Assembly (NCBI GenBank): GCA_903872565.1
Contig: CAIQLG010000189.1
Coordinates: 1 to 62,603 of the forward strand
Direction: 5' to 3'
Source: an uncultured Lentisphaerota bacterium
Lineage (GTDB): Bacteria; Verrucomicrobiota; Lentisphaeria; Victivallales; GWF2-50-93
Length of the DNA stretch: 62,603 nt
This document shows positions 35,747 through 62,462 of the stretch, piece by piece. A program made the translations under genes and the position numbers. Positions within the stretch are counted from its first letter, which is position 1; every line of letters starts with the position of its first letter. The notes under the pieces were generated by a model, which searched no databases, was not told the DNA's origin, and saw nothing but the letters and a program-made list of their open reading frames with translations.

Positions 35747-35768
35747 CCGGAAATGTCGTTATCAACTG

Positions 35769-36590: not shown

Positions 36591-36615
36591 ATTCTATAAT
36601 GGTAAATTCAAAGGG

Positions 36616-36963
36616 GTGTTTGCCGATATAGAAAAGCGAATCTGGATTAGAAGCGGAATAGTCGAAGAACTGGACATGAAGCAGTCAAGGCTCATCGAGT
36701 ATGTGCTTGAAAAGATAAGGCACTATTACAATGAACTTTACGGGACAAGACGATGCTACAGCTATCCTCTGACGCTTTCACGTCTAAGGAAGCTCTGCAA
36801 CCGAAGTTCGTACTCGATAATGGGCGCGGTGAGAATCCTTGCGAACACAGTCCCCTATGGTTCGAAAGAAGAGCCTCCGATACATTACGACAGGGTAAAA
36901 TCAGGCAGGAACAATTCGCATAGACCATATAGGATTTGGTTGAGGAGAGAACATCGACAATAA
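36616..36963 (+). CDS. Hypothetical protein, possible HTH
   Basis: GTG start. HTH-like segment LTLSRLRKLCNRSSYSIMGAVRIL. Confidence 0.55.
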   Translation: MFADIEKRIWIRSGIVEELDMKQSRLIEYVLEKIRHYYNELYGTRRCYSYPLTLSRLRKLCNRSSYSIMGAVRILANTVPYGSKEEPPIHYDRVKSGRNNSHRPYRIWLRREHRQ

Positions 36964-37590: not shown

Positions 37591-37703
37591 ATTTGACCTC
37601 TTTTGTTTATAATCCAAATATTGCATTACACACTCGGATTTCAACTGTTTTCGAGAAAAAATAATTCTGTGTCTATGTTTTATAATATTATACTTCCAAG
37701 AAT

Positions 37704-37738
37704 CCCCACAATACTATGTATTGTAATCAATCCCACTT
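37704..37738. repeat. Dispersed 32-35 bp repeat, copy 1
   Basis: cccCACAATACTATGTATTGTAatcaatcccactt. 28/32 identical to copy 2. Confidence 0.85.
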
Positions 37739-37765
37739 TTGCCTGCCAGAAAAACCGTAATCTGA

Positions 37766-37804
37766 TCGAAAGATATAAATACTAGCGGCATTTATATCTT
37801 TTGA
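37766..37804. repeat. 15-bp inverted repeat (1 mismatch, 9-nt spacer)
   Basis: TCGAAAGATATAAAT-actagcggc-ATTTATATCTTTTGA. Confidence 0.75.
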
Positions 37805-38097
37805 AATAAACAAAACGCAGAAACGAGAGCGAAACTTTTTCTATGCCTCTGGTGAACATTCAGAATAATTCCAATGTCCATACATTTTTAGTATTTGTAA
37901 GGGAGTCTGAATTTCTCCTGACTCCCGGTGGGAGCATTAGGAAAAATTCAAACGCCCGCACATTCATGCTATTTAGGCTTAATTTATTAGGAAAAAAGCA
38001 AGGAAAGGCAAAGAAGGCAAAGGTTGGAAGGAAGGTTATTGGAAAAAAGAAGAAGCTATAAGAGCTAATTCCATATAATTTGATTGGAAAACACCCA

Positions 38098-38129
38098 CAC
38101 AATACTATGTATTGTATTTAAACCCTCTT
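38098..38129. repeat. Dispersed repeat, copy 2
   Basis: CACAATACTATGTATTGTATTTAAACCCTCTT. Confidence 0.9.
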
Positions 38130-38212
38130 GGAATATTAGTTTTAACAAAGGTATTGCCTCAAAGGCCATGAATTATTTGCGCAAATGTATCGGAAAATTT
38201 TAGGATTTCCCT

Positions 38213-38241
38213 TTGTAAGTTGACCATAGTACGATTATAAT
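38213..38241 (+). promoter_or_regulatory. Sigma70-like promoter
   Basis: TTGTAA-N17-TATAAT upstream of the HTH gene and operon. Confidence 0.55.
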
Positions 38242-38292
38242 ACAACCTTATGTGATTTGATATGACTTTATCTATGCTACATAGGGAGCAAA

Positions 38293-38499
38293 ATGATAAT
38301 CGAAAAATGGTTGTCGCTGGACGAAATCGCGAAATACCTGCAAGTCCGCAGGGAGAGTATATATCGGTGGCTGGTCTCAAAAAAGATGCCTGGACACAAG
38401 GTGGGCCGCCATTGGAGGTTCAAGCGAAGCGAAATTGACAAGTGGGTTCGCTCCGGAAAGGCAAGCGACGATATACGCCGTGAAAAATACTGGGAATAG
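38293..38499 (+). CDS. Excisionase-family HTH_17 DNA-binding protein
   Basis: WLSLDEIAKYLQV...IYRW...PGHKVGRHWRF...IDKWV. SD AGGGAG. Confidence 0.9.
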   Translation: MIIEKWLSLDEIAKYLQVRRESIYRWLVSKKMPGHKVGRHWRFKRSEIDKWVRSGKASDDIRREKYWE

Positions 38500-38614
38500 T
38501 ATTGATACAAAAAGAGTTACAGTATGAGCCAAAAAGTTAAAAGAAAGCTACAAAGCTTTTTTCAGAGTATTGAGTTTTTTAAATTGACCCCATGATTAAT
38601 AAGGAGGAAGTTTA

Positions 38615-39364
38615 ATGTTTGATCCTAAAAAGTTCACCGCCCCAACCGCCAAACCACTTCCGGTCGTTTTACTTCTAGATGTCAGCGGGAGTATGCATGG
38701 TGCAAAAATTCAGAACCTCAATGAGGCAGTAAAGGACATGTTGGAAACATTTCGCGGCACAGAAAACATGGAAACCGAAATCCATGTTGCGATCATCACC
38801 TTTGGCGCGGAAGTGAAACTGCACCAGGCTCTGGCCAGAGCTGGGGACATCAACTGGCGTGACTTGTCCGCATCTGGCGGGACGCCGCTCGGCACCGCGT
38901 TCAAAATGGCGAAGGCGATGATTGAGGATAAGGATGTGGTGCCATCACGCGCTTACCGCCCGACAGTTGTTTTGGTCTCGGACGGACGCCCAGGCGACAG
39001 TTGGAGGCAACCACTTGACGATTTCATCGGCAAAGGGCGTTCCTCTAAATGCGACCGCATGGCAATGGCCATCGGCGCAGATGCGGATGAAGGCGTCCTC
39101 GGGGAATTCATTGCCGGCACCAAGAATCTGCTCTTCTACGCCGAAAACGCCAAGCAGTTACGTGAGTTCTTCAAATTCGTCACCATGTCGGTCACGATTC
39201 GGACAAAATCGCAGAAACCAGATGTTGTGCCGAACCCGAACGAAATAGAAGTTAAACCAGCCACTATTGAAGAGCGGAAGGAAAAGCCGAAACAGTCGCC
39301 TGTGCCAAAGCAATCCGGCGAAAAGACGACAAACGAGCAACCAAACGAAGAAGGATACTGGTAA
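38615..39364 (+). CDS. terY: TerY-like vWA protein
   Basis: LLLDVSGSM (MIDAS), GGTPLG, YRPTVVLVSDG and AMAIG. SD AAGGAGG. Confidence 0.9.
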   Translation: MFDPKKFTAPTAKPLPVVLLLDVSGSMHGAKIQNLNEAVKDMLETFRGTENMETEIHVAIITFGAEVKLHQALARAGDINWRDLSASGGTPLGTAFKMAKAMIEDKDVVPSRAYRPTVVLVSDGRPGDSWRQPLDDFIGKGRSSKCDRMAMAIGADADEGVLGEFIAGTKNLLFYAENAKQLREFFKFVTMSVTIRTKSQKPDVVPNPNEIEVKPATIEERKEKPKQSPVPKQSGEKTTNEQPNEEGYW

Positions 39365-40146
39365 TGTTCGACGCAAGTAAATTCACGGTGCCTAAGGCAA
39401 AGCCATTGCCAGTTTTCCTTTTGCTGGATGTCAGTGGTTCGATGGGAGAAGTCGTTGATCCCGAAAATGTCCGCAGAACAGGACAGACGTTAGTAAGCGA
39501 CGGGAAGACATGGGAATTGGTCGAGGGCGGGACTACAAAAATCCAAATCATGAATCAGGCCGTAAAGCAAGTGATTGATACCCTTGCCACCGAGGAGAGG
39601 ATGGAGACTGAGTTCCTGGTTTCGATCATTGTATTTGGCGACAGGGCGGAGCAACATCTCCCGCCGACGGCCGCATCGTCTGTTAAATGGACGGATATGA
39701 CGGCTAACGGGAATACGGCAATGGGAGAAGCGCTCAAAATGGCGAAAGAGCTGATTGAGGATAAAAATGTTGTCCCTTCACGCTCCTACCGACCAACGGT
39801 GGTCTTGGTTTCGGATGGACAACCGACGGACGAATGGCAAGTTCCATTGGAGTCTTTTATTAATGATGGCCGTTCCTCCAAATGTTTTTTTATGGCGATG
39901 GGGATAGGCGAGGCTCACGGTATAAAGGTGCTTGACCGCTTCATCTCTAAAACTCCAGTCTTGGCGGAGGTGAATGGGCATGTAATCAAGAATATCGTGT
40001 TTCATGCGACAGAAGCGGATAAAATACATGATTTTTTCCTCAAAGTTACAATGTCGGTAACTACTCGTAGCAAATCGCAGAATCCAAACAGCGTCCCAAA
40101 ATCTACGAAATCAGGTTCATCCGAAGAAGATAATGGTTATTGGTAA
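39364..40146 (+). CDS. terY: TerY-like vWA protein, paralog 2
   Basis: LLLDVSGSM, GNTAMG and YRPTVVLVSDGQP, with an insertion after the MIDAS motif. Confidence 0.88.
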   Translation: MFDASKFTVPKAKPLPVFLLLDVSGSMGEVVDPENVRRTGQTLVSDGKTWELVEGGTTKIQIMNQAVKQVIDTLATEERMETEFLVSIIVFGDRAEQHLPPTAASSVKWTDMTANGNTAMGEALKMAKELIEDKNVVPSRSYRPTVVLVSDGQPTDEWQVPLESFINDGRSSKCFFMAMGIGEAHGIKVLDRFISKTPVLAEVNGHVIKNIVFHATEADKIHDFFLKVTMSVTTRSKSQNPNSVPKSTKSGSSEEDNGYW

Positions 40147-40207
40147 GGAGGATCTAGTTGGGATACAAAATATAGACTTTATGCAACTTTCGAATTGGAG
40201 GTAAAAT

Positions 40208-40477
40208 ATGCCACAGGCAGTCGGAGATCCAGATGAACTGGAACGTTTCGCGCAATCCTTGCAACAGTTCGTTGATTCGCTCAACGATGCTGTTGGTAAC
40301 CTCAATGGAGCATTCGCCTCGCTTGGTGACACCTGGCAGGACGAGAAGCGGGCACAGTTTGAGGAGCAGTACAATACACTCGTTCAACAATTGAGGCAGT
40401 TTGATTCGAACGCAACGGAACAGATTCCATATCTGACCGCGCTTGCGGCCCGGTTGCGCGACTATCTGCAAAGTTAG
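40208..40477 (+). CDS. WXG100/EsxA-like protein
   Basis: 89-aa helical hairpin with DPDELERFA and a central W-x-D variant (TWQD). SD GGAGG. Confidence 0.85.
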   Translation: MPQAVGDPDELERFAQSLQQFVDSLNDAVGNLNGAFASLGDTWQDEKRAQFEEQYNTLVQQLRQFDSNATEQIPYLTALAARLRDYLQS

Positions 40478-40487
40478 AGGAATCATC

Positions 40488-41798
40488 ATGGCGCAAGTCT
40501 CTATCGGACAAGTTGAAAATCTGGAAGATCTCGCACGGGGACTGGAGTCCGTTCGCGAGGCTCTGGAGTCAGCATGCCGAGAACAAATCGCCGCGGCAGA
40601 AGGCAAATATGCGGAGGCGCGGGAGGAGACGCAAAACAGCGAGAGCATGTTGGAAAATGCCTGTCAGGCTGAGATGGAGGCACAACAGGCAGTTGAAGAT
40701 GCTCAACAGAATTTGGAATCAGTCGAAGCTGCTTTAAGTGCTGCTGTATCCACGTTGTCGGATTGTGAGGCGCAACCTTCCGATGAAGAAGGCAGGGGGC
40801 CAGACTGCTCTGGTGATGAGGCTGCTGTCGCAGATGCGCAAGAGGTTGTCACAGAGGCGCAAAAAGCTGTCGCAGAAACGAAAGCCGAGCTGGAGAAAGC
40901 TACTGAAAACCGCCAGAGTATGGAACAGCGCGTAGAATGTGTAAAACAGGCATTGGCGATAGCAGAGACACTTTTTGAACAGGCCAAACAGGAATGTGCA
41001 TCCCGCATTAATGCAGTATGCAATGCCATAGAAATTGGTAAAACTCGTCTGACTGCCGCGCAACATGCGTTGAAAGCATATCTCGCGACCAATCCGTCTG
41101 CGGCACAGTTCCACTCATGGCTGCATTGGCATCCTGAACAGGGGAAGCCGATAACGCCGGATGTCATACGTGACCGTATGAATCTATCCGTTGAACAACA
41201 GCATTTGCTACAGGAGTATCTCTATGACAGAAATCCTGCTTATCGGAATTTAATTGACAAATATCGCGGAGAATGGGCGACGGCAAAGGGCGATGTCGAA
41301 CGCAACATAGTCAACCGTGAAACCCGGATACATCTGTGCGGCGAGTTCGCGGAACAAATAGCACGGCATGCACTTGCTCCATTAGGCGGGAAAATCGAAA
41401 CGCAGGGGCGGACTTTTGTGGGGGACGGCGGCAGATATACGAAGACGGATTTGCTTGTGACGGACTTGCGTGTTCCGGTCATTCTCGGTCGTGGTGATGG
41501 CATGGGGGCACCGGCTGGCGGCTCGATGGCGTTTGAGGTGAAATGCGGCAAATCGGATTACCTCTACGCGCAGAAGGAGCACATGACATTCCAAGCTGAG
41601 GGTCATAAACAGGCGGATGCGCATTGCACCCTCTGTTCGCGGGACATCCATGACCTGCCTCCGGAGAAAGAAAAAGAATTGCGTGATGCATTGCGAGACG
41701 CCGGCTCGCCGATGGTCGGCATGTTGCCGACAAAGAATGATATCGACCAATCGTGCCTCGAATTCATACGGGAAGGCGCGGAGGAGGAAAAAAAATGA
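40488..41798 (+). CDS. Coiled-coil protein with C-terminal restriction-endonuclease-fold domain
   Basis: Start MAQVS after GAGG. Long coiled coil, then GEFAE...KTDL...FEVK (E..D..ExK). Confidence 0.7.
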   Translation: MAQVSIGQVENLEDLARGLESVREALESACREQIAAAEGKYAEAREETQNSESMLENACQAEMEAQQAVEDAQQNLESVEAALSAAVSTLSDCEAQPSDEEGRGPDCSGDEAAVADAQEVVTEAQKAVAETKAELEKATENRQSMEQRVECVKQALAIAETLFEQAKQECASRINAVCNAIEIGKTRLTAAQHALKAYLATNPSAAQFHSWLHWHPEQGKPITPDVIRDRMNLSVEQQHLLQEYLYDRNPAYRNLIDKYRGEWATAKGDVERNIVNRETRIHLCGEFAEQIARHALAPLGGKIETQGRTFVGDGGRYTKTDLLVTDLRVPVILGRGDGMGAPAGGSMAFEVKCGKSDYLYAQKEHMTFQAEGHKQADAHCTLCSRDIHDLPPEKEKELRDALRDAGSPMVGMLPTKNDIDQSCLEFIREGAEEEKK

Positions 41799-42127
41799 GA
41801 ATACGACTCACGGTAATCCCGCTTGATGACCTTGATCGGGTCCGCCCTCTGGTTGACGCGCTTCGTAACGCTGTCAACTCTGGAGATATGGACGGCATGG
41901 ACACAGCCACGGAGAAACTGACTACTATTACTGCAACGGGGCATTCGATTGATCTTCCTGAGGAAGAGTGGCGAAGATTTCTGGCCAAAATCAGGGCTAA
42001 GAATCCGGAGTTCCAATCCGACTATCTGCTATCTGGTGGACTTTGCACCGAATATTTTTCAAAAGTAACATCGGAAACAATGGTTCTCCAGCTACCGATT
42101 GATAAGAAGGAGGGCAATTATGTTTGA
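41795..42127 (+). CDS. Hypothetical protein, possible partner or immunity protein
   Basis: ATGA overlap with the upstream nuclease-fold gene. Confidence 0.65.
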   Translation: MRIRLTVIPLDDLDRVRPLVDALRNAVNSGDMDGMDTATEKLTTITATGHSIDLPEEEWRRFLAKIRAKNPEFQSDYLLSGGLCTEYFSKVTSETMVLQLPIDKKEGNYV

Positions 42128-42344
42128 CGATGTCTTCGGAATGACAGGCCAATGTGTGGAAACTTTTCGTAATGGTGTAAAAGACTCTTTCGGCGCCTCC
42201 ATTGTTGCCGATGTGCTTGATCCGATTTGTAATGAAATCGGCTTGCTCCGCTCGTTCAACGAGGAATTTCAACGCCAATCTATGAACATAGAGCGGGTCT
42301 TGCAGGAGGCGCGGTCATTTCATTTCAAGGAGAGGTCTAAGTGA
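42120..42344 (+). CDS. Small helical protein, possibly a divergent WXG100-like protein
   Basis: 74 aa. SD AGGAGG. Overlaps both neighbours. Confidence 0.6.
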   Translation: MFDDVFGMTGQCVETFRNGVKDSFGASIVADVLDPICNEIGLLRSFNEEFQRQSMNIERVLQEARSFHFKERSK

Positions 42345-45300
42345 TGAGCAAGACAAAAGGGCATTTCCAGGATTGCATTGCCAAACTGGTCAGAGTTGTT
42401 GAGAATTATCAGGACGGAATCGCGCTCATAGACCGGGAATTCGACGATGCCTGCGAACAAATTGACCAATCCATTACCAGCATTCGCGGAGAATCTGCGA
42501 AGCGTGACGGGCATTCCCAAAACGAAATTTTGCAGGAAAAAAAACTGCGCCAACAATCAGAAATAATCGAACGCGACATCTCAAAGACCGAAGCTGAAAT
42601 TGCCAGGCTTGACCAGGGAATAGCCGCTGTTGACGCGGCTATCCAAGCAATGAAACAGGAGAAAACGAGCCTTGAACAGCAAATACAAAACCGTTGTCTC
42701 ATAGAGATGATTTACTATATTTTTTGCCAGGACAAGGATAAAGAGAGAAGCGACAGGTTGCAAAACGGTCTTGACAATCGGGCTAAAGAAAAATCAGCTT
42801 TGGAACAAACCAAACGTGAATTCGAATCAACCAGACTGCAAGCGATCTCCAAGAAGAAAAGCCTTCAAACGACATTGGCCGAAATCCGCCAAAAACTAGC
42901 AGCACTTAAAATATCCGCTAAATGTGCGAATGAACAGGAGCGGATTCTCGCAGGCAAGCACACGGAAGCAGAGAGCCGGAGAAAAACGCGGAAAAGCAAT
43001 CTGTTGACATCCCTTTCCCCCGCATGGGAAAGGGCATCAGCTGAAACGGCACAGGGTGTGGCACGGGTTCGCAGGCAACAACCCGCTTTCATTGATTTGC
43101 GCGAGTACAATCCGTGCATTACATTGTCTATGCCAGGCGTTCTCCTCCTTGGTTCGCAACAGGTATCATTCAAAGAACTCCACTGTCTGGTTCCGCATGT
43201 CATTCCGTTTCCATTCGAACATGCTCTTGTTTTGCCTGAGGATAATGCGGCGCAACAGCGCCTGGCGCATCATCTCCTCCTGCGGTTTTTGCAAGCCGTT
43301 CCTCCAGGACGGCTTGAATTAACTTTGGTTGACCCGCTGAAACTGGGGCAGTCTTTTGCTCCGTTTCTCACGCTTTTAAATGTGGAGCAATTGATGCCAC
43401 AGAAGCATGTGCTGACTCGCGCCGACGAAATTGAATCCACGCTCGCTAATTTGACGGATGATACCGAAGACCTGATTCAACACCGATTCAAGGGAAGGAT
43501 TTCCAACTGGACTGAGTTCAACACTGCGAACCCAGACAACCAGTTGCAGTATAAAATTCTCTTGCTTTTCGATGTTCCCGAGCAACTGTCGGACAAAAGT
43601 TTGTGGTATCTCGAACGATTAGCCGAGAACGGACCGCGTTGCGGAATACTGCCCATTATCGCTATTGACAGCCAGCGAATTGAAGACAGGAGGTATGAGA
43701 AGTTTCGCGACTCTCTGAAAAATTCGACTCAACGGCTTGATGCGCTTCTGTATGTCACGGACAAACTTGGAGAAGGGCTCTCAGTGTCATTTCAGGCTGA
43801 GGAGTGGCCACTACGGGAGGTGCTGGACAAATTCCTGTCCGCTCTTGCAGCAAGCTATGCCGAGAAGGGGCGGTTCAGCAAATCGTTGCCAGACCTATGG
43901 AAAGTCTATGCAAAAGGTGCCACGACCATCGGTGGTTTCGACATTCCCATCGGCTGGACGCATCCTGGAGAAATCGTGTCGCTGACGCTTGGTTCGACGA
44001 GCTCCGAACATCACGCTCTCTTAGCAGGAAAGACCGGTTCCGGAAAGTCCAATCTCCTCCATGTCATGATTCATTCTATCTGTGAGAAATACGCACCGAA
44101 TGAGCTTGACCTCTACTTGCTGGACTACAAGGAATCCACGGAGTTTACGGTCTATGCGAACCCACTGCTACCCCACGCACGGCTGGTCGCGACGGAAAGC
44201 GACCCAGAATACGGAGTAACGGTGTTGCATCACCTGGTGGATGAACTCGAAAGCAGGGCAAGGCTCTTCAAATCAGAGGGTGTCCGTGATTTTGCAGAAT
44301 ACCGAAATGTGCGCCGTAACCAATTGCCGCGCGTCCTTTTGGTCATCGATGAGTTTCAGGTCTTGTTCACGGAAGAGCGCCAAATTGCGGAAAGAGCGGA
44401 GAAACTGCTATCGCAACTTCTCAAGCAGGGGCGTTCCTTCGGCATTCATCTCCTCTTGGCGACGCAAACATTGAAAGGCATCAACGCTTTGTCGCTTAGT
44501 TCCCTTATTTCACAGTTGGGCTGTCGCATTGCGCTTGCCTGCGGTCAGGAAGATTCAGCCATGATCCTCAGCGGCAACAACTGGGCGGCATCTGAACTCA
44601 AAAGCCCGCCCGAAGGCATCATCAACAACGCCAACGGCGCGAAGTCAGGCAATATCAAGTTTCTGATTCCACTGGCGAAAAAAGAGTTTTGCGACACTCA
44701 TCTTAGTCAATTGTCGGACCGCGCATTGAAGCGCGGCCTCAAAAGCAAAACGCGGATTTTTGATGGTGCAAATCTGCCGCGCCGTCCGGCATTCAACGGT
44801 TTCAAAGCCATCTGCGGGCGAGCGGATGCACTTCTCTTGGGCGAACGGCTGACCTTCACTGCCGATACGCTATCTATCCCGCTGACCGCGCGCCAAGCCT
44901 TCAATGTGTTATTCAGCGGTTACAATGATTTAATTCACGACGGACTGCTATCTTCGGTCCTCGTCAGTTTGTCATGCACCGAAGCTTTCGATGAAATCGT
45001 CTACTTCAACGGACGGGGAATTTCGCCTCTCGGCGGTTTCACCGATGTTTCATCGGCGTTGGGAGGGCGGTTTAAAGCGTTTGACGATATCGGCGCTTTG
45101 CCGTTGCAGGAAATTGCGGACAATATCGGCAAACGACGCATTGCGCTGATTGTGGATGGTTTGGACGCGGAAAAGACCCTGCATCCCATCCAGACATTCA
45201 AGACACCGAAACCGGGAGAACCACAGATGCCTGCCGACCTTTTGAAACGCATCGCAGATGATGGCTCGCGAAAAGGGACATTCGTCCTCGCTTTTATTGA

Positions 45301-45523
45301 CAACTGGCGACGATGCGCCACTTCCTGCAAAGACCTATTTAACCTCTTCGAGTTGCGAGTGGCATTCTGCATGAACGAGGATGACGCAGGCGCAATGGTT
45401 AGCGGCGGCATTGGCAAATTCAAAGGGATAGAGAAACCCAACCGGGCGGTATTCGTTAACCGTATGACAAATGAAACATATTGGTTCCGGCCATACATTG
45501 TTGAACCAGAGGTGGATGCATGA
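42341..45523 (+). CDS. FtsK/SpoIIIE (EssC/EccC-like) ATPase with N-terminal coiled coil
   Basis: AGKTGSGKS, YLLDYK, VIDEFQ and GRSFGIHLLLATQ, flanked by degenerate P-loop-like domains. Confidence 0.9.
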   Translation: MMSKTKGHFQDCIAKLVRVVENYQDGIALIDREFDDACEQIDQSITSIRGESAKRDGHSQNEILQEKKLRQQSEIIERDISKTEAEIARLDQGIAAVDAAIQAMKQEKTSLEQQIQNRCLIEMIYYIFCQDKDKERSDRLQNGLDNRAKEKSALEQTKREFESTRLQAISKKKSLQTTLAEIRQKLAALKISAKCANEQERILAGKHTEAESRRKTRKSNLLTSLSPAWERASAETAQGVARVRRQQPAFIDLREYNPCITLSMPGVLLLGSQQVSFKELHCLVPHVIPFPFEHALVLPEDNAAQQRLAHHLLLRFLQAVPPGRLELTLVDPLKLGQSFAPFLTLLNVEQLMPQKHVLTRADEIESTLANLTDDTEDLIQHRFKGRISNWTEFNTANPDNQLQYKILLLFDVPEQLSDKSLWYLERLAENGPRCGILPIIAIDSQRIEDRRYEKFRDSLKNSTQRLDALLYVTDKLGEGLSVSFQAEEWPLREVLDKFLSALAASYAEKGRFSKSLPDLWKVYAKGATTIGGFDIPIGWTHPGEIVSLTLGSTSSEHHALLAGKTGSGKSNLLHVMIHSICEKYAPNELDLYLLDYKESTEFTVYANPLLPHARLVATESDPEYGVTVLHHLVDELESRARLFKSEGVRDFAEYRNVRRNQLPRVLLVIDEFQVLFTEERQIAERAEKLLSQLLKQGRSFGIHLLLATQTLKGINALSLSSLISQLGCRIALACGQEDSAMILSGNNWAASELKSPPEGIINNANGAKSGNIKFLIPLAKKEFCDTHLSQLSDRALKRGLKSKTRIFDGANLPRRPAFNGFKAICGRADALLLGERLTFTADTLSIPLTARQAFNVLFSGYNDLIHDGLLSSVLVSLSCTEAFDEIVYFNGRGISPLGGFTDVSSALGGRFKAFDDIGALPLQEIADNIGKRRIALIVDGLDAEKTLHPIQTFKTPKPGEPQMPADLLKRIADDGSRKGTFVLAFIDNWRRCATSCKDLFNLFELRVAFCMNEDDAGAMVSGGIGKFKGIEKPNRAVFVNRMTNETYWFRPYIVEPEVDA

Positions 45524-45987
45524 TTCTTTATCTGATTTGTGATAAATCCGGCAGCATGTCAGAGGGAGGAAAGCACCTTATTCCGCGAGTTGTGGCGCGG
45601 GCAACGGAGCAATATATCCGTCTCGGATATGGATGTGCGGATTTGAAACTGGTCGCATGGGGCAATGAAGCACGGGTTGTCGAGTGGATTCCGGACAAAG
45701 AATTCCCGCCGGAAATGCTGGTTTGTGAAAATGCGGCAAACTCGCAGGCACTAACCACTCTTCTCGGAGAGCAACCCGATGGTAAAGTTTTGCTTGTCAC
45801 AGATGGGTTTTGGTCACAGAATGACGCGAAAGTATTGAAACGTTGGAAGGAAAAGCTTCAACAAGACACGCTCCGTATCATAAAGGTAGGGGCTGATGCC
45901 AATCCGCAACTTAAAGGAAAGGATGTTTTTTCCGCGGAAGATTTGTTTGCTGCGCTGGATGGCTGGGTGGAAGGGGGTGCAAGATGA
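45520..45987 (+). CDS. Short vWA-like protein
   Basis: CDKSGSM, LLVTDG and IKVGADA. Confidence 0.7.
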   Translation: MILYLICDKSGSMSEGGKHLIPRVVARATEQYIRLGYGCADLKLVAWGNEARVVEWIPDKEFPPEMLVCENAANSQALTTLLGEQPDGKVLLVTDGFWSQNDAKVLKRWKEKLQQDTLRIIKVGADANPQLKGKDVFSAEDLFAALDGWVEGGAR

Positions 45988-53455: not shown

Positions 53456-56400
53456 ACATGGGGCTATTTGGAATGAACGAAGCAGAACTAAAGAAATATT
53501 CAGCTGAACTTCTGCAACGGGAAACAAATTTGAAAAATCGCGAAAGCGATATTAACCGCGAGAAATCCAATTTGGAACATGAGCGGGAACTTCTGCAATC
53601 GGATAAATCAGCATTTGAAAAAGCACGCACTTATCACTTGGAGGAAGTTAAAAGGGTTAGTGAACAAAACTCTAGTGAGTTTTCCAAGATGGAAAGTCGC
53701 CGCCAAGAATTGGCCAAACAAGAGGCTGAAGCGAAGGCAGGCTTTGTAGAAAAGCAGCGCGATGTTTTCAAAGAAGTTGTCGAAAAAAGGATATCTGAAC
53801 TCGATGCCCGTCAAAAGGACTTGAACGATGTCGCTAAACGCATCGCCGATGAACTTGCCGCGCTCCATAGCCGCGAAGGTGAGATTGCACAACGTGAACT
53901 TGCAGTAACAGAAAGAGAACAAAAGGCTGATGCTGGATTCGCCGACAAAGCAACGCAGCTGGCGGCAAACGCGAAACATCAGTACGAGGTAAATCAGGAA
54001 GAAGCAAACCGTCTCATAAAATGGGAGGATGAACTTGTAAAAGGAAAGACAGCACTGGAGTCTGCTAAAGAACAACTACGATGCCGTGAGCAATCCGTCA
54101 TTGATGCCGAACTAAAACGCGATGCTGGTTGGACGGACAAGCGTGTTGCGTTAGAAAAGGAACTCCACTATGCACGGCAGAATTTACAAGAAGAAATAGC
54201 TGAAATCCGTCTCGCCGTCCAGCGCGAAACCGCTCAAAAGAAAGAATTAATGCTGGCCGATTTGGAAACTGAGACTTCCAATCTTCTCGAAAAACGACTT
54301 TCCGAAATCACAGCCGCTGAAAACAAGGAACGAGAACGGATCCGCAAGGATGCGGAAGATGAGGCGATGCGTATCCGCACCGAAATCGCCAATGAAAGGA
54401 TGCTGTGGACGAAACAGCAGGAAGATGCTCGCAAACATTTGGAGGCCGAACGGACTGAACTTGAAAAGCAAAAGAGCGCGGTGTCCGCTCTACGGAGCGA
54501 ACTCGAAGGCTGCAAAACTGAATTTGAAGCAAATGAACGGACGCTCGAGCGGAAGGAACAGCGGCTTGAACAGCAATGGAAGAAAAGGAACGACGAGTTG
54601 GACGATACAATCGAAGTCGGGCTTGAAGAAGAACGCAAGTCGCTGGCTGTTGAAAAACAGTCATTCAAAGATGAAAATAACCGTCTGCGCGAAAGCCTTC
54701 GCATCCAAACCGAACTTGCCGGAGCGTTCGACCAGTTGAAGCGACAACTCGGCGAAAAAGACCCAGCCGAAATCCTCCGTGACCTTAACAGCAAAACGGA
54801 TGAACTCAAGCGATTGCGCGAAGAGCTCTCCACCCGCCCTACAGAAGAGATGCGCGAAAAATATCAAAATATGGATTCCGAATCTCAACGACTGAAGGCC
54901 CGAATCGACGATCTCGAAAATCAAATCAACGCCAATGCCACCACGGTTTCGGAAACCGCAGACCTGCGCCGCAAAAACAGCGAATTAGGTGCAGAAAATA
55001 AATCACTCGCGCAAAAGGCATCCCTCTTCGAGGGTGCAGCGAACGAGGCACAAGCCGAACTCAACCGTCTCCGCGCCGCCTACGAACGGCCTGCCGAAGT
55101 CGCCGCCCGATATAAGGAAATAGAGATGCCACATATCAAGGCGGACAAGGCGAAACAACCGACGAAAGCCGACATTGATGAAATCACTTGGCTCAAGGGG
55201 GTCTGCAAAGCTTGCGACGGGTACGGATTTCACTTCAATCCGCGTATTCTGAAAGCATTCCACACAGCACTTAAAATCGCCGATTGGTCACAATTAACCG
55301 TTCTAGCCGGCGTCTCCGGCACCGGTAAGTCAGAATTGCCCCGCCTATATTCGCACTTTGGCGGGTTGATGTTCGAACCGTTGTCTGTCCAACCGAACTG
55401 GGATTCGCAGGAATCCATGCTTGGATTCTTCAACTCGATTGACAACAAGTTCGACGCACAACCGGTGCTGCGGTTCCTGGCGCAAAGTCAGCAATCCGGA
55501 AACGAAACATATGAAAAGCGCATTGCGCGCTGGAAGAAAATGTCTGGGAATAAACTCGAACTCGATTCTGAAAAGAATAAGGAACTGATTGAGGCGATGA
55601 AAGAATCGGATTATCCGGGATTGGAAGACTGTGTTTGTATGGTTCTTCTCGACGAGATGAACATCGCTTACCCTGAACTCTACTTTGCCGAGTTCCTGAG
55701 CAAACTCGAACTCCGGCGCGGGATGAAAGGAGAAGTGCCGTGTTTGCCTGTAAAAATCGGTGCTGGAATGCCTCCTTACCAACTTCCGCTAGGTCGTAAT
55801 ATCCTCTGGACGGGAACAATGAATCAAGACGAAACAACGAAATCGCTTTCTGACAAGGTACTCGACCGCTCCATTATCATTCACTTCCCGCGTCCAACCA
55901 AACTCATACGCCGTCAGAAACAAGAGGTGCTGTCTGAGAAAAACCGAGGGACTATTTTACATAGAAGCGCGTGGGAAAAATGGTGTTTACGGGAGATTTC
56001 GTTCTCAGAAGAGGATATCAAGCCGTTCAAACAATTCATCGAAAAAATGAACACCGCCCTCGCTGTCGCCGGCCGCGCCATCGGGCACCGTGTCTGGCAG
56101 TCCGTCGAATACTACATGGCGAACCATCCCGATGTCCGCTCCGCACAAGAGGCAAACGACAAAGACGCGCTCGCCAAAGCGCTCCATATAGCCTTTGAAG
56201 ACCAACTCGTCCAGAAGGTCATGCCGAAACTGCGCGGCATTGATACTCGCGATAGGTGTAAGAGCAAAACCGAATGCCTCGACAAGATCCTCGCTCAAAT
56301 CAACATTGGTATCTGCGACAAGGATGGTAAGCCGTGTGACAAGCCGTTCAATCTCGAAGTAGACTTCAAACTCGCCTGCGAACTTGGATATGGTCAGTTC

Positions 56401-56526
56401 ATCTGGCAATCGGCAAATTACCTCGAGGATGAGCCGGTTTCAGAAAAAGATGAAGTTGTGATGCCTGACGAGGAACACGCGGATAAAACGCATCCCAAGA
56501 AAACTAAAAAGAGTACTAACAAATGA
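53452..56526 (+). CDS. Coiled-coil McrB-like AAA+ GTPase (CnuB-like)
   Basis: About 550-aa coiled coil, then GVSGTGKS, LLDEMN, GTMNQDE (McrB NxxD signature) and SDKVLDRS. Confidence 0.88.
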   Translation: MNMGLFGMNEAELKKYSAELLQRETNLKNRESDINREKSNLEHERELLQSDKSAFEKARTYHLEEVKRVSEQNSSEFSKMESRRQELAKQEAEAKAGFVEKQRDVFKEVVEKRISELDARQKDLNDVAKRIADELAALHSREGEIAQRELAVTEREQKADAGFADKATQLAANAKHQYEVNQEEANRLIKWEDELVKGKTALESAKEQLRCREQSVIDAELKRDAGWTDKRVALEKELHYARQNLQEEIAEIRLAVQRETAQKKELMLADLETETSNLLEKRLSEITAAENKERERIRKDAEDEAMRIRTEIANERMLWTKQQEDARKHLEAERTELEKQKSAVSALRSELEGCKTEFEANERTLERKEQRLEQQWKKRNDELDDTIEVGLEEERKSLAVEKQSFKDENNRLRESLRIQTELAGAFDQLKRQLGEKDPAEILRDLNSKTDELKRLREELSTRPTEEMREKYQNMDSESQRLKARIDDLENQINANATTVSETADLRRKNSELGAENKSLAQKASLFEGAANEAQAELNRLRAAYERPAEVAARYKEIEMPHIKADKAKQPTKADIDEITWLKGVCKACDGYGFHFNPRILKAFHTALKIADWSQLTVLAGVSGTGKSELPRLYSHFGGLMFEPLSVQPNWDSQESMLGFFNSIDNKFDAQPVLRFLAQSQQSGNETYEKRIARWKKMSGNKLELDSEKNKELIEAMKESDYPGLEDCVCMVLLDEMNIAYPELYFAEFLSKLELRRGMKGEVPCLPVKIGAGMPPYQLPLGRNILWTGTMNQDETTKSLSDKVLDRSIIIHFPRPTKLIRRQKQEVLSEKNRGTILHRSAWEKWCLREISFSEEDIKPFKQFIEKMNTALAVAGRAIGHRVWQSVEYYMANHPDVRSAQEANDKDALAKALHIAFEDQLVQKVMPKLRGIDTRDRCKSKTECLDKILAQINIGICDKDGKPCDKPFNLEVDFKLACELGYGQFIWQSANYLEDEPVSEKDEVVMPDEEHADKTHPKKTKKSTNK

Positions 56527-59500
56527 CCCTGATTGAACTCTACCAGTCACAAGCGACGGACGGGGGAACTGGCGAAAACGCCCGCGCACTGCTGAAGCAG
56601 ACGCACTGGTTTACAGACAATGCCGACTTTGATCCAAAGACTGCCGAAGCACTTCCGCAGGTGTTATCCGCATTCCTATATAGAGTCACGCGATCGGGGA
56701 ATCCCGCCCCCCTTCATGATCGCCTCTGGCGCATCACAGAACACGCCCGTCCTTCAGTGGAACGCCTCTTCCGCGCACTTAACGAAAGTCCACGCCGTGA
56801 GCATGCGCTGTTGCCCGTCCGCGCCGTTCGGGAATTGGACGCCAACAGTTTCATCAAACTCAGCAACCGACCTGGCCGTAACATTCGAGAGAAACTTGCC
56901 GGCAAACCCTATCTCCAAGCCGTCCGCCGTTTCCAATCCGTCAACCTGCCCGAGAATCGTCTGCTGAAAACATTCGTCACCCGACTTGCGGAATTGCTCG
57001 AATTGCGCCAAAACTGTCTCGACGGGGAAGAAGACGAACTGCTCCCCAAAATTCAATCGTGGCTTCTTTCCGAAGAGGCGCAAACAATCGCTCGTTGGGA
57101 GAACCTGCCACCAAACAACACGCTTCTCTCCCACCGCGACTATCGCCGTGTCTGGGATGCCTGGAGTCGGATGCAAACACTCGATGAAGATATCGCTCGC
57201 GATTACTCTCAACTCGAAGTCCGCGACAAAACGATGCGCCTTTGGAATGAATATGCTCGAATGTATTCCGAGGGAACACATTATTTCGCAGAAATGCCCG
57301 TTCTCTTCGACTACGAAAAATTTAAAATCCAACCCTGGATTTCTCAACTCTCATTTAAGAAGGCAATACGAAAAATAATTCGCTCCTCCCGAATGAAAGA
57401 AATATCCGACCCGGTTTGCGTTGACCTTGCCATATTGTACCCACACTATGCCACCACAACAAAGTCATCTTTGTCTCTTTATGACTCCTATTTATGGCAG
57501 GAATGGGAGAAAGAAGATGAATCCGTTGACATCGAACTCTTCAACTCCGATGCCGCATATCTTCATCCTGATGCTACCTCAATTTCTTCAAGGGATCTTT
57601 TTTTCTCTAAAGACAACTCTCTCGAACATCTTGACCGCGCCGCGCGTGCATTCGCCTCAAAACTGCGCGAAACTTTTAAGAACGATACCTTCATCTGGCT
57701 CGTTCCCGATTTCCTCAACGATTTCGAACTAGAAATCATCCGCCGCAACATCAACGCTCGCTTCCCAAACGCCGAGCCGCTCCCGTGCAGCGTGGCGGCT
57801 GTATTTGAGCAGGTTGACTATTCCAAAATCAAAAACGACGGCTATCCCATCGTAGTCGTTGATACCATCGGCGGTAAAACCTGTGCCACCAAACTCATCG
57901 CTCGAATTAACCCCGAACTCAAAAAACTCCTTCCCGAAACCAACGGTTTTTTCTGGGAGCGTTGTCCACCGGTAATTATCTCACATAGAGAGAATGAGGA
58001 AGCAGAGGGGGGAAAATGGCAAAACTGCGACATCATCACCGTTGACGACAAAGGACAGTGGTGCGATAGGATTCGCACAGAAAAGCCGCAGTTCATTGAC
58101 CCAAGCACCCTCAAACGCGACCCGCGCATCGGGCAGTTTGCCTTTTGCATCAATGTGACCAAGAGCCCCGTAGGCGGCGGCATACGCCTCCATGCTTTGC
58201 AGCAACGCGCGGGGAACATCCCGCTCTGGCGCGACCAGATTCCCGAACTGTATATCCTGCTTCAGCGTTTTTGCTTGGTCGGCAAAAACATCTCCGTCGA
58301 ACCCATTCGCGGTTTATCCGTCCCAATCCCAATTCACGATAACTTCTACCTTAAACCTGGGAAACGATTCTATCGGTTTCCGCTATACCAAGGCGAAAAA
58401 GCTGACGAAATCGGATACTCTGCCCGTCTTGATTCACCTGCGTTTCCACGCAAAACAGTCACCGTATGCAAACTCAACCTCACCTTTGAATACGGCGCTG
58501 ACGAACCTTATAAACTCATTTTCGACCCCCTCGATAAATCCTTCCCGTCAATCCACGCCATCTGGCGGCGTACTGAGGAAGACATTATCACAGATGCCCC
58601 TGCACCAGAATACCCAACACCTATGTCATGGACGGAATTACGCAATGCGCCGAAACCAGACAGTAAAGAAACCAGCGACTTGCTGGAATGGGTATTGTCA
58701 GCAATTGACGGGCTGGACAGAGATTTGTTCATTCGCCCACAAAAAAGGATAGTCGGCAAGATATGCAGGTATTGGGGTATGGATAAAGGTGGCAAGCATT
58801 TTACTATCGCTAAATGTGACGAAACCGACGCAGATGTATTCATTCACGAAACAGCTCTCATGAAAGGATTGCACTATGAAGATTATGAAGAGGGAAATGA
58901 AGTCTCATTTGAATTACGAGAATATAAAGGCAAATTCTCAGGTTATAAGGTCGCAAATTCTGATTACAGAGAAGAAACACAATTACGCAATTTTAACGAT
59001 AATGTAACTACAAATGTAGTAAAAATTATTCGTCAACGTCTTTATGTTCCATTCATTCAAGTTTGGAGAGACGGGCGCTCGATCATGGACGAAGAATGTC
59101 CGAAAGACTTTGCCAATGAGGCAAAATATAGGATTAAATATCTTACCGATTTGTTAAGCCAACCCGGAATCCCACAACCTGTGAAAAATGAATTTTTGTT
59201 TTTGCTCGCCTGCCTTCACAAGGATACAACGGACGAGTGTGTACAATGGCTTACCGACCAAGTTGAAAATGGAGACCTTCTTGATCTACGAGCGATCGGT
59301 TTTGCGCTTGGTGATGTATCAGAAGAGTGGCAACAATATATATTCAGCAAGCTTGCCACAAACCCAAGTAACTCGGCAATCAGCGTATTCGCCTACGCTA
59401 TTTGGCGCGAACAGCGCTTTGTCGAAAGATTTTCTATTTCAGAATTGCAAGAGGCTCTGTATGCCTTGTCAAGACGCTTAGCAAATATACAAGCGCAGCA

Positions 59501-59837
59501 AAAAGAAGATGGTACGTTTAGTGTCGCTGTCAAACCGTTTGAACTTCTTTACGGATTGATGCGCACTCGTACCTCAACAGACACTGAAATCAAGATGCTC
59601 CTTCAGCCACAACAGAAAATCACTAAAATGCTTGAAAAGCAGGTCAAACGAGTTATTGAGATTGTTGCGCAAAATAAAATCGAACTCGCCTCCCGTATTC
59701 AACTGATGGATCTTCCCCCAAAACCTACCGGCGATCGCACTCCTGACTTGCTCTACGCATTGCGACTCTCTCTATCTGGAGATGATGGAGCAATTGGTAT
59801 CCGCACCACTGGTGTATCCAACAATGATAATGACTGA
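56523..59837 (+). CDS. McrC-like DUF2357 N-terminal domain fused to Hsp70/actin-like, cold-shock and helical domains (CnuCD-like)
   Basis: PRREH..LPVRAVRE, PENRLLK and PNNTLLSHRDY. WLVPD and VVVDTIGG. VFIHE...GNEVSFEL (CSD). Confidence 0.7.
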   Translation: MTLIELYQSQATDGGTGENARALLKQTHWFTDNADFDPKTAEALPQVLSAFLYRVTRSGNPAPLHDRLWRITEHARPSVERLFRALNESPRREHALLPVRAVRELDANSFIKLSNRPGRNIREKLAGKPYLQAVRRFQSVNLPENRLLKTFVTRLAELLELRQNCLDGEEDELLPKIQSWLLSEEAQTIARWENLPPNNTLLSHRDYRRVWDAWSRMQTLDEDIARDYSQLEVRDKTMRLWNEYARMYSEGTHYFAEMPVLFDYEKFKIQPWISQLSFKKAIRKIIRSSRMKEISDPVCVDLAILYPHYATTTKSSLSLYDSYLWQEWEKEDESVDIELFNSDAAYLHPDATSISSRDLFFSKDNSLEHLDRAARAFASKLRETFKNDTFIWLVPDFLNDFELEIIRRNINARFPNAEPLPCSVAAVFEQVDYSKIKNDGYPIVVVDTIGGKTCATKLIARINPELKKLLPETNGFFWERCPPVIISHRENEEAEGGKWQNCDIITVDDKGQWCDRIRTEKPQFIDPSTLKRDPRIGQFAFCINVTKSPVGGGIRLHALQQRAGNIPLWRDQIPELYILLQRFCLVGKNISVEPIRGLSVPIPIHDNFYLKPGKRFYRFPLYQGEKADEIGYSARLDSPAFPRKTVTVCKLNLTFEYGADEPYKLIFDPLDKSFPSIHAIWRRTEEDIITDAPAPEYPTPMSWTELRNAPKPDSKETSDLLEWVLSAIDGLDRDLFIRPQKRIVGKICRYWGMDKGGKHFTIAKCDETDADVFIHETALMKGLHYEDYEEGNEVSFELREYKGKFSGYKVANSDYREETQLRNFNDNVTTNVVKIIRQRLYVPFIQVWRDGRSIMDEECPKDFANEAKYRIKYLTDLLSQPGIPQPVKNEFLFLLACLHKDTTDECVQWLTDQVENGDLLDLRAIGFALGDVSEEWQQYIFSKLATNPSNSAISVFAYAIWREQRFVERFSISELQEALYALSRRLANIQAQQKEDGTFSVAVKPFELLYGLMRTRTSTDTEIKMLLQPQQKITKMLEKQVKRVIEIVAQNKIELASRIQLMDLPPKPTGDRTPDLLYALRLSLSGDDGAIGIRTTGVSNNDND

Positions 59838-59852
59838 TAACAGGAAAAAACT

Positions 59853-61595
59853 ATGAAACACTATCTGCTCACTTGGTATGGCATCACCGACCTCCGCGCC
59901 GCACTCGGCCTTGAAGCAACCGACGGACCGATTCTCAGTGCGCTCAAAACTGGAAATTTCACAGATGTCGTCATCCTCGCATACTCCAACCCTTGCAAAG
60001 ACCAAAACGCTTTCACGAATGATCTCTCCACCCAATGGGAGAAATTGAGGCATGAAGGCCTTGAAACTCGCTTGAAATTTCCACGCGACAAAGCGCAGCT
60101 GATTGTGGATGCAGTCAGCAATACTGTGGCGGGACATACGCTTTTCACGAAATGGCTGAAAGCCGAACTGACCACCGCTGGGATTTCCTGCGAGATTCAA
60201 ATCATCCATCAGGAACTGCAGCATCTGAACGATGCGCAGGGAATTTACAATGCCGCCGCATCGGCGCTTAAACACGCTTTGAGCGATACCAGCGAAAAAA
60301 CGCTTACCAGTTTTGTGAGTCCCGGAACACCGGTGATGGCATACACTTGGGCTCTGATTGCAAGGTCACAACCCCAGCACAAGATAGCCGTTATCGCCAG
60401 TTCAGACCCGCGCAAGCCGCCTGAAACAATTATTCTGCCAAAGGATTTGCTGATGCCGATGGTCGCCGCGCCGCAAACCGCCAAACCGTCCGAATATGAT
60501 GCCATTATTCACCTGCTTGGACGCGAGCGGATGCCGATTTATTTCGCCATGCTCCAATTTCAGGCGAAAGAACACATTTTCATTACAACACAAGATTATG
60601 ACAATGCCGCATCTGCTCTATCGCGCTTGCTACCTTCCTCTTGCAATGTCAAGACTGTAATCATCCAAGACCCCTTCAAGCCTGCCGATACGCGAAGGGC
60701 GATTGAAAAACAAGTTGCCAAACATCCATCAACAGCAAAAATAGCGGTCAACCTGACCGGTGGAACAAAATTGATGTTTTCGGGAGCGTTGGCCGCCTGT
60801 TGGGAAAGCGGAATCGAACCGTTCTACTTTGAGATACACAATCACAATGTCATCTTCCTTCGCGACGGCGCGACGGTTCCGTTCATTGGCGCAAAATCCG
60901 TCAAGGACTTTTTCACCGTCAACGGATTTGATGTTATCACGCAAGGCCAGTGGAATTACCGCATGACCCGCTTGACAGGCACAAACAAATTGTGGGAAAA
61001 ACGAAAGACACTGGGCTCGCTATATCAATATGCTGATTTCCGGAAATATAACATACACTGGGGGTGCAGGCGCAATCCACCTTTCAACTGGAAATGGAGC
61101 AAATCTCAAGCAACATTTGATAAGAATGGGAACGCAACGCTTCTTTTGGACAACGAATCTATTTCGGTACCGCCTTGTGATGACTTCGGGCAGTATCTCG
61201 GTGGGGGATGGTTAGAAGAGTATGTTTTCTCCTTGTTGTATCCGCTCAAAGAGAAGGGGTTGATTCACGATTTGCGCATCGGTGTTGAAGTGGACTACTC
61301 TGGGAAAGTTCGTCACCCCAATGACCCTCCCAACGGCGAGTTCGACTGTGCGTTTACGGACGGCAAACGCTTGTGGCTTGTTGAGTGCAAGGCAGGAGCG
61401 GTCAAACAGGAGCACATACAAAAACTTGAAAACAACTTGAAAACCTATGGTGGCATTGCTGCAAAGGGCATTCTCGTTTCCTCTTTCCCAATTGTCTCTG
61501 CACTTGTGAAACGCGTTTCTTCTTCGACAGCCATCCGTGCCGTTCAACCCGGAGAATTGGGTACCGAAGTCCTCCAGAAAATCATTTTCTCCTGA
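59853..61595 (+). CDS. Double-CARF PD-(D/E)XK nuclease (RtcR-type CARF plus DUF1887/Card1-like)
   Basis: LLTWYGITDL...GPI...SPGTP (RtcR-like CARF). NLTGGTK (DUF1887 CARF). GGWLEEY...EFD...VECK (nuclease). Confidence 0.8.
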   Translation: MKHYLLTWYGITDLRAALGLEATDGPILSALKTGNFTDVVILAYSNPCKDQNAFTNDLSTQWEKLRHEGLETRLKFPRDKAQLIVDAVSNTVAGHTLFTKWLKAELTTAGISCEIQIIHQELQHLNDAQGIYNAAASALKHALSDTSEKTLTSFVSPGTPVMAYTWALIARSQPQHKIAVIASSDPRKPPETIILPKDLLMPMVAAPQTAKPSEYDAIIHLLGRERMPIYFAMLQFQAKEHIFITTQDYDNAASALSRLLPSSCNVKTVIIQDPFKPADTRRAIEKQVAKHPSTAKIAVNLTGGTKLMFSGALAACWESGIEPFYFEIHNHNVIFLRDGATVPFIGAKSVKDFFTVNGFDVITQGQWNYRMTRLTGTNKLWEKRKTLGSLYQYADFRKYNIHWGCRRNPPFNWKWSKSQATFDKNGNATLLLDNESISVPPCDDFGQYLGGGWLEEYVFSLLYPLKEKGLIHDLRIGVEVDYSGKVRHPNDPPNGEFDCAFTDGKRLWLVECKAGAVKQEHIQKLENNLKTYGGIAAKGILVSSFPIVSALVKRVSSSTAIRAVQPGELGTEVLQKIIFS

Positions 61596-61609
61596 CACAC
61601 TTCCCGACG

Positions 61610-61810
61610 ATACTCCGCTTGCGGTGGTGCCAATGCCTTGCAGAGCAATGCCACTGACTGGTCGGCGGAGGGCATACGATTCACAGGAAGCACACATCAA
61701 GTATCGTCGTCGCGGAGTTGATCGAGGGTGCGTTCGACAAGCTGGCTGAGGAGTTTGAAAAGCTTGAGCTGAACATCAAACGCATGAAAGCGTTACCGCT
61801 GGACGAGAAC
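61610..61810 (+). pseudogene. Possible DUF932-like gene remnant
   Basis: Open stretch HRKHTSSIVVAELIEGAFDKLAEEFEKLELNIKRMKALPL with no start codon. The upstream part appears frameshifted. Confidence 0.3.
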
Positions 61811-62059
61811 TGTCAAGGCCAACCGAACCGCATATCTTCTAAATGTCCATGTGATTGATCGTTTACCATTTTCTTGCCAGTGAAGTAGCGCAGCCTGGCG
61901 GCAACCAGTATTAGTTCAGCCACACCGTTCTATGAAACTTGATCAGGCCGATTTTGAAAGGCAGATTGAACTAATCAGGACACACCTGGAAATATCCCCC
62001 AAAAACAAGGAGTTGGCAATAGAAAATCAATTTAGGTTGGTGAAAGGCAGTATTATTTC

Positions 62060-62263
62060 TCATATCTTTTTTTCATTCTTGTTTTTTGTCATCCATAAGT
62101 TTACTCCCATTTTTTGTATCTTCACGATTTTCCCTGCAATAATAAGTTCTAATAAATATTTTTCTGCAGTATTCCAACTTAAATTAAATATTTTAGCAAT
62201 TTCAGAACTAGTAACTACCTTTTCTTTCTTTATAACATCTAGAATATTATTATGAATATCCAT
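62060..62263 (-). CDS. Small winged-helix DNA-binding protein (AT-rich, archaeal-like)
   Basis: ILDVIKKEKVVTSSEIAKIFNLSWNTAEKYLLEL...GKIVKIQKMGVNLW. Confidence 0.75.
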   Translation of the reverse strand: MDIHNNILDVIKKEKVVTSSEIAKIFNLSWNTAEKYLLELIIAGKIVKIQKMGVNLWMTKNKNEKKI

Positions 62264-62286
62264 ACTAATATTAATATCTACAGTTA

Positions 62287-62300
62287 TTTATAAAGCTTTC
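62287..62300 (-). promoter_or_regulatory. Archaeal-style BRE/TATA promoter
   Basis: Minus-strand GAAAGC-TTTATAAA ends 23 nt before ATG 62263. No SD. Confidence 0.55.
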
Positions 62301-62427
62301 TTATAATAGGGCTCTGTTGAAAAAGTTATAGGGAGTGAAAACATTGTTAAATGAATTGGATAGAATACAAAGAATTAATAATAGAGATGAAGACACATAT
62401 GAATGGCAGTACTATTATTCGGCGTAA

Positions 62428-62462
62428 CCCCACAATACTACGTATTGTATTTGAACCCTCTT
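62428..62462. repeat. Dispersed repeat, copy 3
   Basis: cccCACAATACTACGTATTGTATTTGAACCCTCTT. 30/32 identical to copy 2. Confidence 0.9.

Follow-up and report, generated by a model that had tools for sequence, protein, structure and literature searches.

A palindromic repeat in a Lentisphaerota defence island as candidate recombination site of an archaeal-type tyrosine recombinase

The window analysed here is a 62,603 bp stretch of DNA from an uncultured Lentisphaerota bacterium, comprising an entire contig of a defence island with neither an integrase nor a tRNA gene on it. Its subject is a short palindromic repeat, CACAATACTAYGTATTGTA, which begins at 37707, 38098 and 62431, always on the same strand and outside long open reading frames (ORFs). 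The repeat is a real feature, and its three direct copies are the only ones in the genome. With moderate confidence it is regarded as the recombination site of a tyrosine recombinase of archaeal derivation encoded inside the island, a site at which cassettes accumulate in an integron-like manner, although the system is not an integron.

The first-pass annotation had reported three intergenic copies in the same orientation, two of them 28/32 and 30/32 identical to the middle one, and a recount bore this out; copies 1 and 3 share 26 of 32 positions. Copy 1 (37704..37738, + strand) reads CCCC ACAATAC-TAT-GTATTGT A followed by the tail, copy 2 occupies 38095..38129 (+) and copy 3, with the centre TAC, 62428..62462 (+). 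Three matches with at most two mismatches were observed against 0.09 expected by chance, and none of 100 shuffles attained three. The 17-bp core ACAATAC-N3-GTATTGT occurs exactly three times in the genome that holds the window (G000; 6.56 Mb in 606 contigs) and never with one mismatch, so that the search for further copies proposed at first pass found none and no genome-wide scatter. The repeat was missing from all 60 relatives scanned, and among 350 genomes of the class three had a single match each, equal to the reversed control (three matches). One contig assembled independently in Logan spans copies 1 and 2 without differences. A host regulon operator, a chance pattern or an assembly artefact, for which only the palindromic shape speaks, is thus refuted as far as these scans reach and is given next to no probability. 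The operator regulon offered as an alternative at first pass falls in its host version; the operator of a regulator encoded by the element itself stays a live rival.

Searches of larger collections added one homolog. A metagenome pattern scan returned 28 matches, of which one is a true homolog: contig L068, with a 36/39 match to copy 1 that adjoins an ORF of the element and a HicAB pair. The exact pattern, too narrow because it fits copy 2 only, had no match in GTDB contigs and five when the flanks were dropped. In IMG/VR six matches were found, all inside genes, and none for two flank patterns. No tRNA, tmRNA or Rfam family was matched at the repeat. At 264 and 37011 the weaker TTCCC(C)ACAA stretches, at first taken to mark block boundaries, do not rise above chance (expected numbers for the window 0.25 and 2.2), and a gene contains an equally good match at 60999. 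An ACAAT-N7-ATTGT family at many contig ends was rejected as a different repeat. A multi-copy element with the core TTTCCACAAT-N7-ATTGTGGAAAC, unrelated to the repeat, stands at contig ends in G000 (C12, C72, C81, C142, C178, C241, C417 and others).

In five other genomes a palindrome homologous to the repeat stands about 200-320 bp ahead of the gene for such a recombinase. A degenerate pattern gave six matches in three of five genomes searched (control, two matches), and these three genomes are the only ones of the 350 in the class with a close recombinase. All six lie in or just upstream of the leader of this gene: four at 236-321 bp before its ATG, one with a leader whose contig stops short of the gene, and one as a second copy in G011, 631 bp further up. 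The arms vary to ACATTAC and ACAATAT with the symmetry kept. In genome G434, where the enzymes are only 21-25% identical and the gene order differs, two loci have the perfect palindrome ACGTATA-N3-TATACGT, again with the tail, about 200-225 bp upstream of the recombinase; at a third locus the palindrome is one base shorter. G332 (twice) and G252 carry ACACG-N5-CGTGT at the same place, ahead of the recombinase. The symmetry is 7-3-7, 6-4-6 or 5-5-5 and the core 15-17 bp long among clades, and the site variants track the recombinase tree. In 12 aligned sites 96% of cells pair and five of seven arm pairs show two-sided change, a count inflated by kinship and by the finding of the G434 sites through their symmetry. 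Homology between elements begins at the left edge of the site. A TATA-like box follows 37-125 bp past the site, then a conserved hairpin.

In the window this leader is retained to different extents. Copy 1 stands at the head of a whole leader whose recombinase gene is missing: a TATA-like box at 37768..37779 (+), homologous in position to the boxes before the recombinase in G011, G547 and G549, a weak degenerate copy of the hairpin at 37823..37881 (+; nhmmer E 0.011-0.14) and the conserved hairpin of about 60 nt at 37896..37960 (+), which in relatives precedes the ATG. Copy 2 has about 40 bp of leader-like right flank and then unrelated DNA. Copy 3 is followed by a TATA-like sequence at 62484 before an insertion sequence (IS) interrupts the contig 35 bp beyond the copy. 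Even distant clades retain the TATA-like box ahead of the recombinase. A perfect 12-9-12 inverted repeat at 37769-37801, not seen in relatives, overlaps the box in the window. The hairpin (window 37896-37960; L093:3016-3083; L101:13492-13560; L108:2570-2635) shows two-sided change in 17 of 27 pairs across seven sequences and has no Rfam match; it is a candidate cis-regulatory RNA or second recombination structure.

Homologs of the HerA ATPase of this island family were found in 7 of 400 genomes of the phylum and 7 of 350 of the class, and HerA and recombinase queries against IMG/VR gave no matches. In G011 and G547, the best-assembled close relatives, the order is intact and runs from a core module through variable cargo to the site, the tyrosine recombinase, ArdC, (RadC) and a ParB-like gene. 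The second half of the island in G000 is contig C436, whose recombinase has intact catalytic motifs and is 70% identical to that of G011, which is itself preceded by a site near-identical to the window repeat. The intact cognate recombinase of the window sites therefore likely lies on C436, in agreement with the early proposal of a recombinase outside the window. The far end of the IS at 62498 was not found, and the window is therefore not joined to C436. The C436 enzyme has 403 aa, a weak Phage_int_SAM match (N-terminal SAM-like domain) and a C-terminal zinc ribbon; a 105-aa ORF on the same contig had no usable match in the ESM Atlas. The closest named relatives of the recombinase are proteins called Woesearchaeota/Nanoarchaeota integrases, to which it is 55-59% identical and with which it groups at 99/99 support, so that an archaeal source is likely; the tree comprised 22 rows of selected hits, SNJ2 itself not among them. 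Close recombinases number about 700, archaeal ones included. Identity to the pleolipovirus integrases GacPV1 and ThalV2 is 32-35%. The G549 enzyme is identical to a Victivallaceae-named protein.

The islands have borders of their own. That of G547 is 95 kb long, bounded by 54-bp tRNA-Ala repeats and equipped with its own integrase; that of G011 ends at tRNA-Ser beside an integrase, a 70% homolog of which lies next to the same tRNA on contig C151 of G000. Because these borders are separate tRNA repeats with a different integrase, the repeat is internal and not the attachment (att) site of the island. The islands are integrated at tRNA genes by that other integrase, and the internal recombinase therefore needs another target.

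Arrays of direct site copies suggest what this target may be. On contig C41 of G252 the end of a winged-helix gene is followed by a half-site (central TTAAC and right arm only), an antitoxin/ParE module (854 bp), a full site, a Phd/YoeB module (657 bp), a second full site, the leader and the recombinase. In G332 a lone site and then the recombinase come straight after the same winged-helix gene, with no cassette: the empty state. At a second G252 locus TTAAC stands at the matching junction, ahead of different cargo. The two G011 copies, 631 bp apart, enclose one 80-aa gene. These arrays, together with homology that starts at the site edge, are the pattern expected if the enzyme inserts units at the site, with exchange around the 5-bp centre. 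The original description of att-like sites in a cassette or island array is in this way partly supported: direct copies do separate small cargo units in G252 and G011, the sites are not att sites of the island, as the tRNA-Ala ends in G547 show, and site-specific cassette accretion is a putative function.

In the proposed mechanism, one copy of the site would stand at the head of the recombinase leader, in the order site, TATA-like box, hairpin, ATG. The recombinase would recombine this site with a like site on a small incoming DNA, with strands exchanged at the central 5 bp or close to it. Upstream of the recombinase gene, cargo units about 0.4-0.9 kb in size would pile up, each bounded by a direct copy. 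The three copies in the window would derive from an island that has been rearranged and has its intact recombinase on C436, and the 24-kb operon inside the unit between copies 2 and 3 would probably be a later addition to a small AT-rich unit.

Several observations weigh against this mechanism. The 17-bp 7-3-7 symmetry has the shape of a helix-turn-helix operator. The leader without a gene at copy 1 is unexplained by simple cassette stacking. The C436 recombinase has no site upstream, and its contig is linked to the window by synteny only, with no overlap. Nor was a site recognised ahead of the G381, G225 and G123 enzymes. A full array is present in one genome only (G252), and in G549 the junction of a 666-bp two-gene insert on contig C212 falls at the left edge of the would-be site and not at its centre. 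The centre is TAT in copy 2 but TAC in copy 3, a difference that would hinder exchange. No joint was found on 33000-42000 (copies 1 and 2) in Logan contigs from three runs, and none of the loose ends listed (all but 16) lies at either of these two copies. Logan contigs drop rare variants, and the three runs are from one study (the X2-X5 set). Lower shares of X3 and X4 were considered as deletions and rejected because of low depth.

The symmetry would be accounted for directly if the palindrome were the operator of an element-encoded winged-helix dimer controlling the recombinase promoter, the extra copies being remains of the leader produced by duplication, deletion and IS activity. The site is always upstream of the TATA-like box, the element encodes two or three winged-helix proteins, and copy 1 would be a leader relic. 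There is also a precedent in SNJ2, where, in the available part of PMC10123103, a palindrome by the TATA box is required for repression of the integrase promoter by Orf4. Less easily fitted to an operator are the variable distance between site and box and the differing core length between clades. Moreover, the upstream copies in G252 have no leader and exactly bound toxin-antitoxin modules, and one of them is a hybrid of centre and right arm. An operator is on balance improbable. The two readings are compatible: by binding the site, the enzyme may in addition act as a repressor of its own leader.

The layout is likewise that of an origin of transfer (oriT). The site would then be a single-strand hairpin nicked by the recombinase as an atypical relaxase, with ArdC, RadC and the ParB-like gene as leading genes and extra copies resulting from aborted or partial transfers. 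In pIGRK the oriT lies just upstream of the mobK promoter, according to the part of PMC8152469 available, and MpsA of SGI1 is akin (PMC6414798, likewise an extract). On the minus (template) strand the loop has a purine first and A last in 16 of 16 sites listed, and G...A in 13 of these (one row being the G252 upstream copy), against 145 of 1071 background palindromes with G-N-A; the pattern may be due to inheritance and not to selection. No classical relaxase was found among 35 island proteins scanned, a subset of the island ORFs, and no type IV secretion genes were recognised. The known recombinase-type relaxases are without a core-binding domain, whereas the enzyme here is full length with its SAM-like domain and zinc ribbon, and an oriT leaves the neat cassettes unexplained. 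It is considered an unlikely account.

The segment between copies 2 and 3 raises a further possibility, that the recombinase-ArdC-ParB module, or else the 24-kb block, arrived as a single island with the site as its attL/attR. The two copies are 35-bp direct repeats, 32/35 alike, that flank 24 kb, with a recombinase remnant 420 bp inward of copy 3. In G011, G547, G549, G434 and G332, however, the site lies internally, flanked on either side by element genes; G547 and G011 have no far-end copy, and the G547 island ends in its tRNA repeats. Such an entry is very improbable. Nor was support obtained for the 24-kb segment as an excisable unit, given the difference at the centre and the lack of a joint at copies 1 and 2 in the three runs.

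Within the unit an HTH_17/MAD1-like regulator (38293..38499, +) heads an extended Type III-A CoCoNuT-like defence operon (38615..61595, +). The operon encodes three VWA proteins, FtsK/EssC, PP2C, a kinase, an SF1 helicase, a HEPN-motif protein, a McrB-like GTPase, DUF2357+CSD and a CARF-nuclease. As far as the available text of PMC11090510 goes, Type III-A CoCoNuT systems have a duplicated VWA with an FtsK ATPase, TerY-P, a UPF1-like helicase, the HEPN protein CnuE, the McrB GTPase, CnuC with DUF2357+CSD and a CARF-nuclease. The features of this type were recognised at 38615-61595 by Pfam, PADLOC and NCBIfam domains and by Walker A, NxD and RxxxxH motifs. In gene order and domains the operon resembles a Type III-A CoCoNuT with a WXG100/FtsK extension; it is cargo only and leaves the repeat unexplained. 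The ends of the unit have a G+C content of 0.33 and 0.27, the operon 0.49, and the right end holds mobile-element debris (a gene fragment, a recombinase remnant, an IS terminus and a 67-aa winged-helix gene). On these grounds, and with units of 0.4-0.9 kb elsewhere, the simpler history is a small AT-rich unit that probably received the operon afterwards.

No description of the island element or the site was found in open-access full text, and the system differs from each known one to which it was compared. With integrons (IntI, attI, attC) it shares a tyrosine recombinase gene beside tandem small cargo units with direct sites, often toxin-antitoxin modules; this arrangement is present in G252 (two cassettes) and G011 (one). 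In contrast, the cargo here retains its own promoters and is found in either orientation, and the site looks like a perfect palindrome of 15-17 bp plus a tail and not like the long hairpin of attC. The 35-bp site, with its 7-bp stem, matched no Rfam family. Integrons are defined by IntI with its IntI-specific additional domain in the part of PMC9668308 available. The C436 enzyme is not IntI: it scores 48.3 bits against TIGR02249 (cut-off 265), and its best model is archaeal XerA, also below cut-off. Elsewhere inside the G011 island (G011:C17:38300-55000; L093, L094) about 35 small same-strand ORFs are accompanied by repeated 40-60-bp elements, an arrangement taken here to be like a classical attC cassette array.

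The pdif/dif modules of Acinetobacter plasmids, as far as the partial sources describe them, have short double-strand sites bounding small accessory modules in a similar way. Here the recombinase is the element's own and lies beside the array in place of host XerC/D, all copies are direct, and there is no 11-6-11 dif sequence. A dif site has two 11-nt arms around a 6-nt spacer and is used by host XerC/D or XerA (PMC8371274, available in part), and the symmetry of the present site is not of this kind. Archaeal integrases of the XerA/pNOB8/SNJ2 group and GacPV1/ThalV2 are similar in sequence identity, and the palindrome near a TATA box is as at SNJ2 PInt. Nearly every SNJ2-type att site lies in a tRNA gene (PMC5861418, in the portion available), and a review, also available in part, limits the SNJ2 family to Halobacteria; the enzyme here lies inside a bacterial island that owes its integration to another integrase. 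The repeat likewise does not behave as a tRNA-targeted att site, with no tRNA in the window or matched at the repeat and with separate tRNA repeats as borders in relatives. For the recombinase-type relaxases MobK, TcpM and MpsA, an inverted-repeat site, the oriT, immediately precedes the promoter of the tyrosine-recombinase-like gene on the mobile element, and the present site fits this position. Those enzymes have no core-binding domain, and no cassette arrays are described for them in the parts of the sources available; the 403-aa enzyme is not of the catalytic-domain-only type. Short catalytic-domain-only tyrosine recombinases do occur in two related islands (G011:C17:54516-55196 and L039:4419-5135) and are candidate MobK-like relaxases.

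Other features of the window are as follows. A 29-kb one-strand run of Druantia-, Dpd-, DISARM- and Dsr2-like defence genes (DruE-, DpdE-, DrmD-, TmtA-, DrmMI-, Dsr2- and Zac-like) extends over 333-29320. The motif CTAGGACATTTTGTGTCC and an inverted copy 53 bp apart lie at 29519-29630; the pair is common to C121 and C589, elsewhere stands near a WYL-type context, and is a possible defence-island operator. The element core comprises a HerA/DUF87 ATPase recognised by Pfam (33767..35158, - strand; 83%, 76% and 74% identity to G011, G549 and G547), a 177-aa ORF kept in relatives (35139..35672, -), a 195-aa tandem winged-helix protein (35772..36359, +) and two ORFs at 36402..36963 (+) of 62 aa and 115 aa, the latter winged-helix-like. 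The 195-aa protein, a candidate binder of the site, has an archaeal-type TATA box 25 nt upstream; its structure model (predicted local distance difference test score 88) matches the SSV1 F-93 fold best and MarR-type domains next. To the left of copy 1 is a cargo ORF (37069..37644, -), of which a fragment occurs elsewhere in the G011 island.

At the right end, a gene fragment at 61664..61789 (+), presumably DUF932-like, comes from a mobile element and is also present on C396 and C255. It is followed by the remnant of the recombinase, a 57-bp 5' piece of the C436 family (61953..62009, +; 79% nucleotide identity), 16 bp that match the terminus of another multi-copy IS (62023..62038, +) and the small winged-helix gene of 67 aa in 27%-GC DNA (62060..62263, -), which has an archaeal-type TATA box and archaeal nearest Atlas clusters. 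The end of the multi-copy IS that breaks the contig occupies 62498..62603 (no strand assigned), with identical ends on four other contigs. Archaeal-type B recognition element/TATA boxes were observed 21-25 nt before the ATGs of element genes in this bacterial genome (35733, 62300 on the minus strand and 37768 in the window; L068:956). A 14-nt match to the 5' end of tRNA-Pro at 61885-61898, beside the recombinase remnant, is weak (E 2.5) and was not used. A tRNA-His-like sequence called by ARAGORN in G000 (C526:4488-4560) belongs to a dispersed repeat family with more than 50 other places in the genome.

The enzyme, several winged-helix genes and the promoter boxes look archaeal, yet they sit in islands integrated at bacterial tRNA genes. 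Under the operator and oriT explanations too, the analysis has marked out a previously undescribed family of islands that share a conserved site-leader-recombinase unit. Should the neighbouring enzyme recombine the site, the system would amount to integron-like accretion assembled from unrelated components, combining a short, defined site with one full-length enzyme, and it would also offer a tangible path by which genes pass between DPANN archaea and bacteria. More tentatively, it may be a platform for gene capture apart from integrons, in which a recombinase of DPANN-archaeal origin stacks toxin-antitoxin and other cassettes, some with archaeal promoters, at a palindrome before its own gene, thereby funnelling archaeal DNA into the defence islands of Lentisphaeria and related bacteria while large defence operons, the 24-kb CoCoNuT for one, ride along on the same units.

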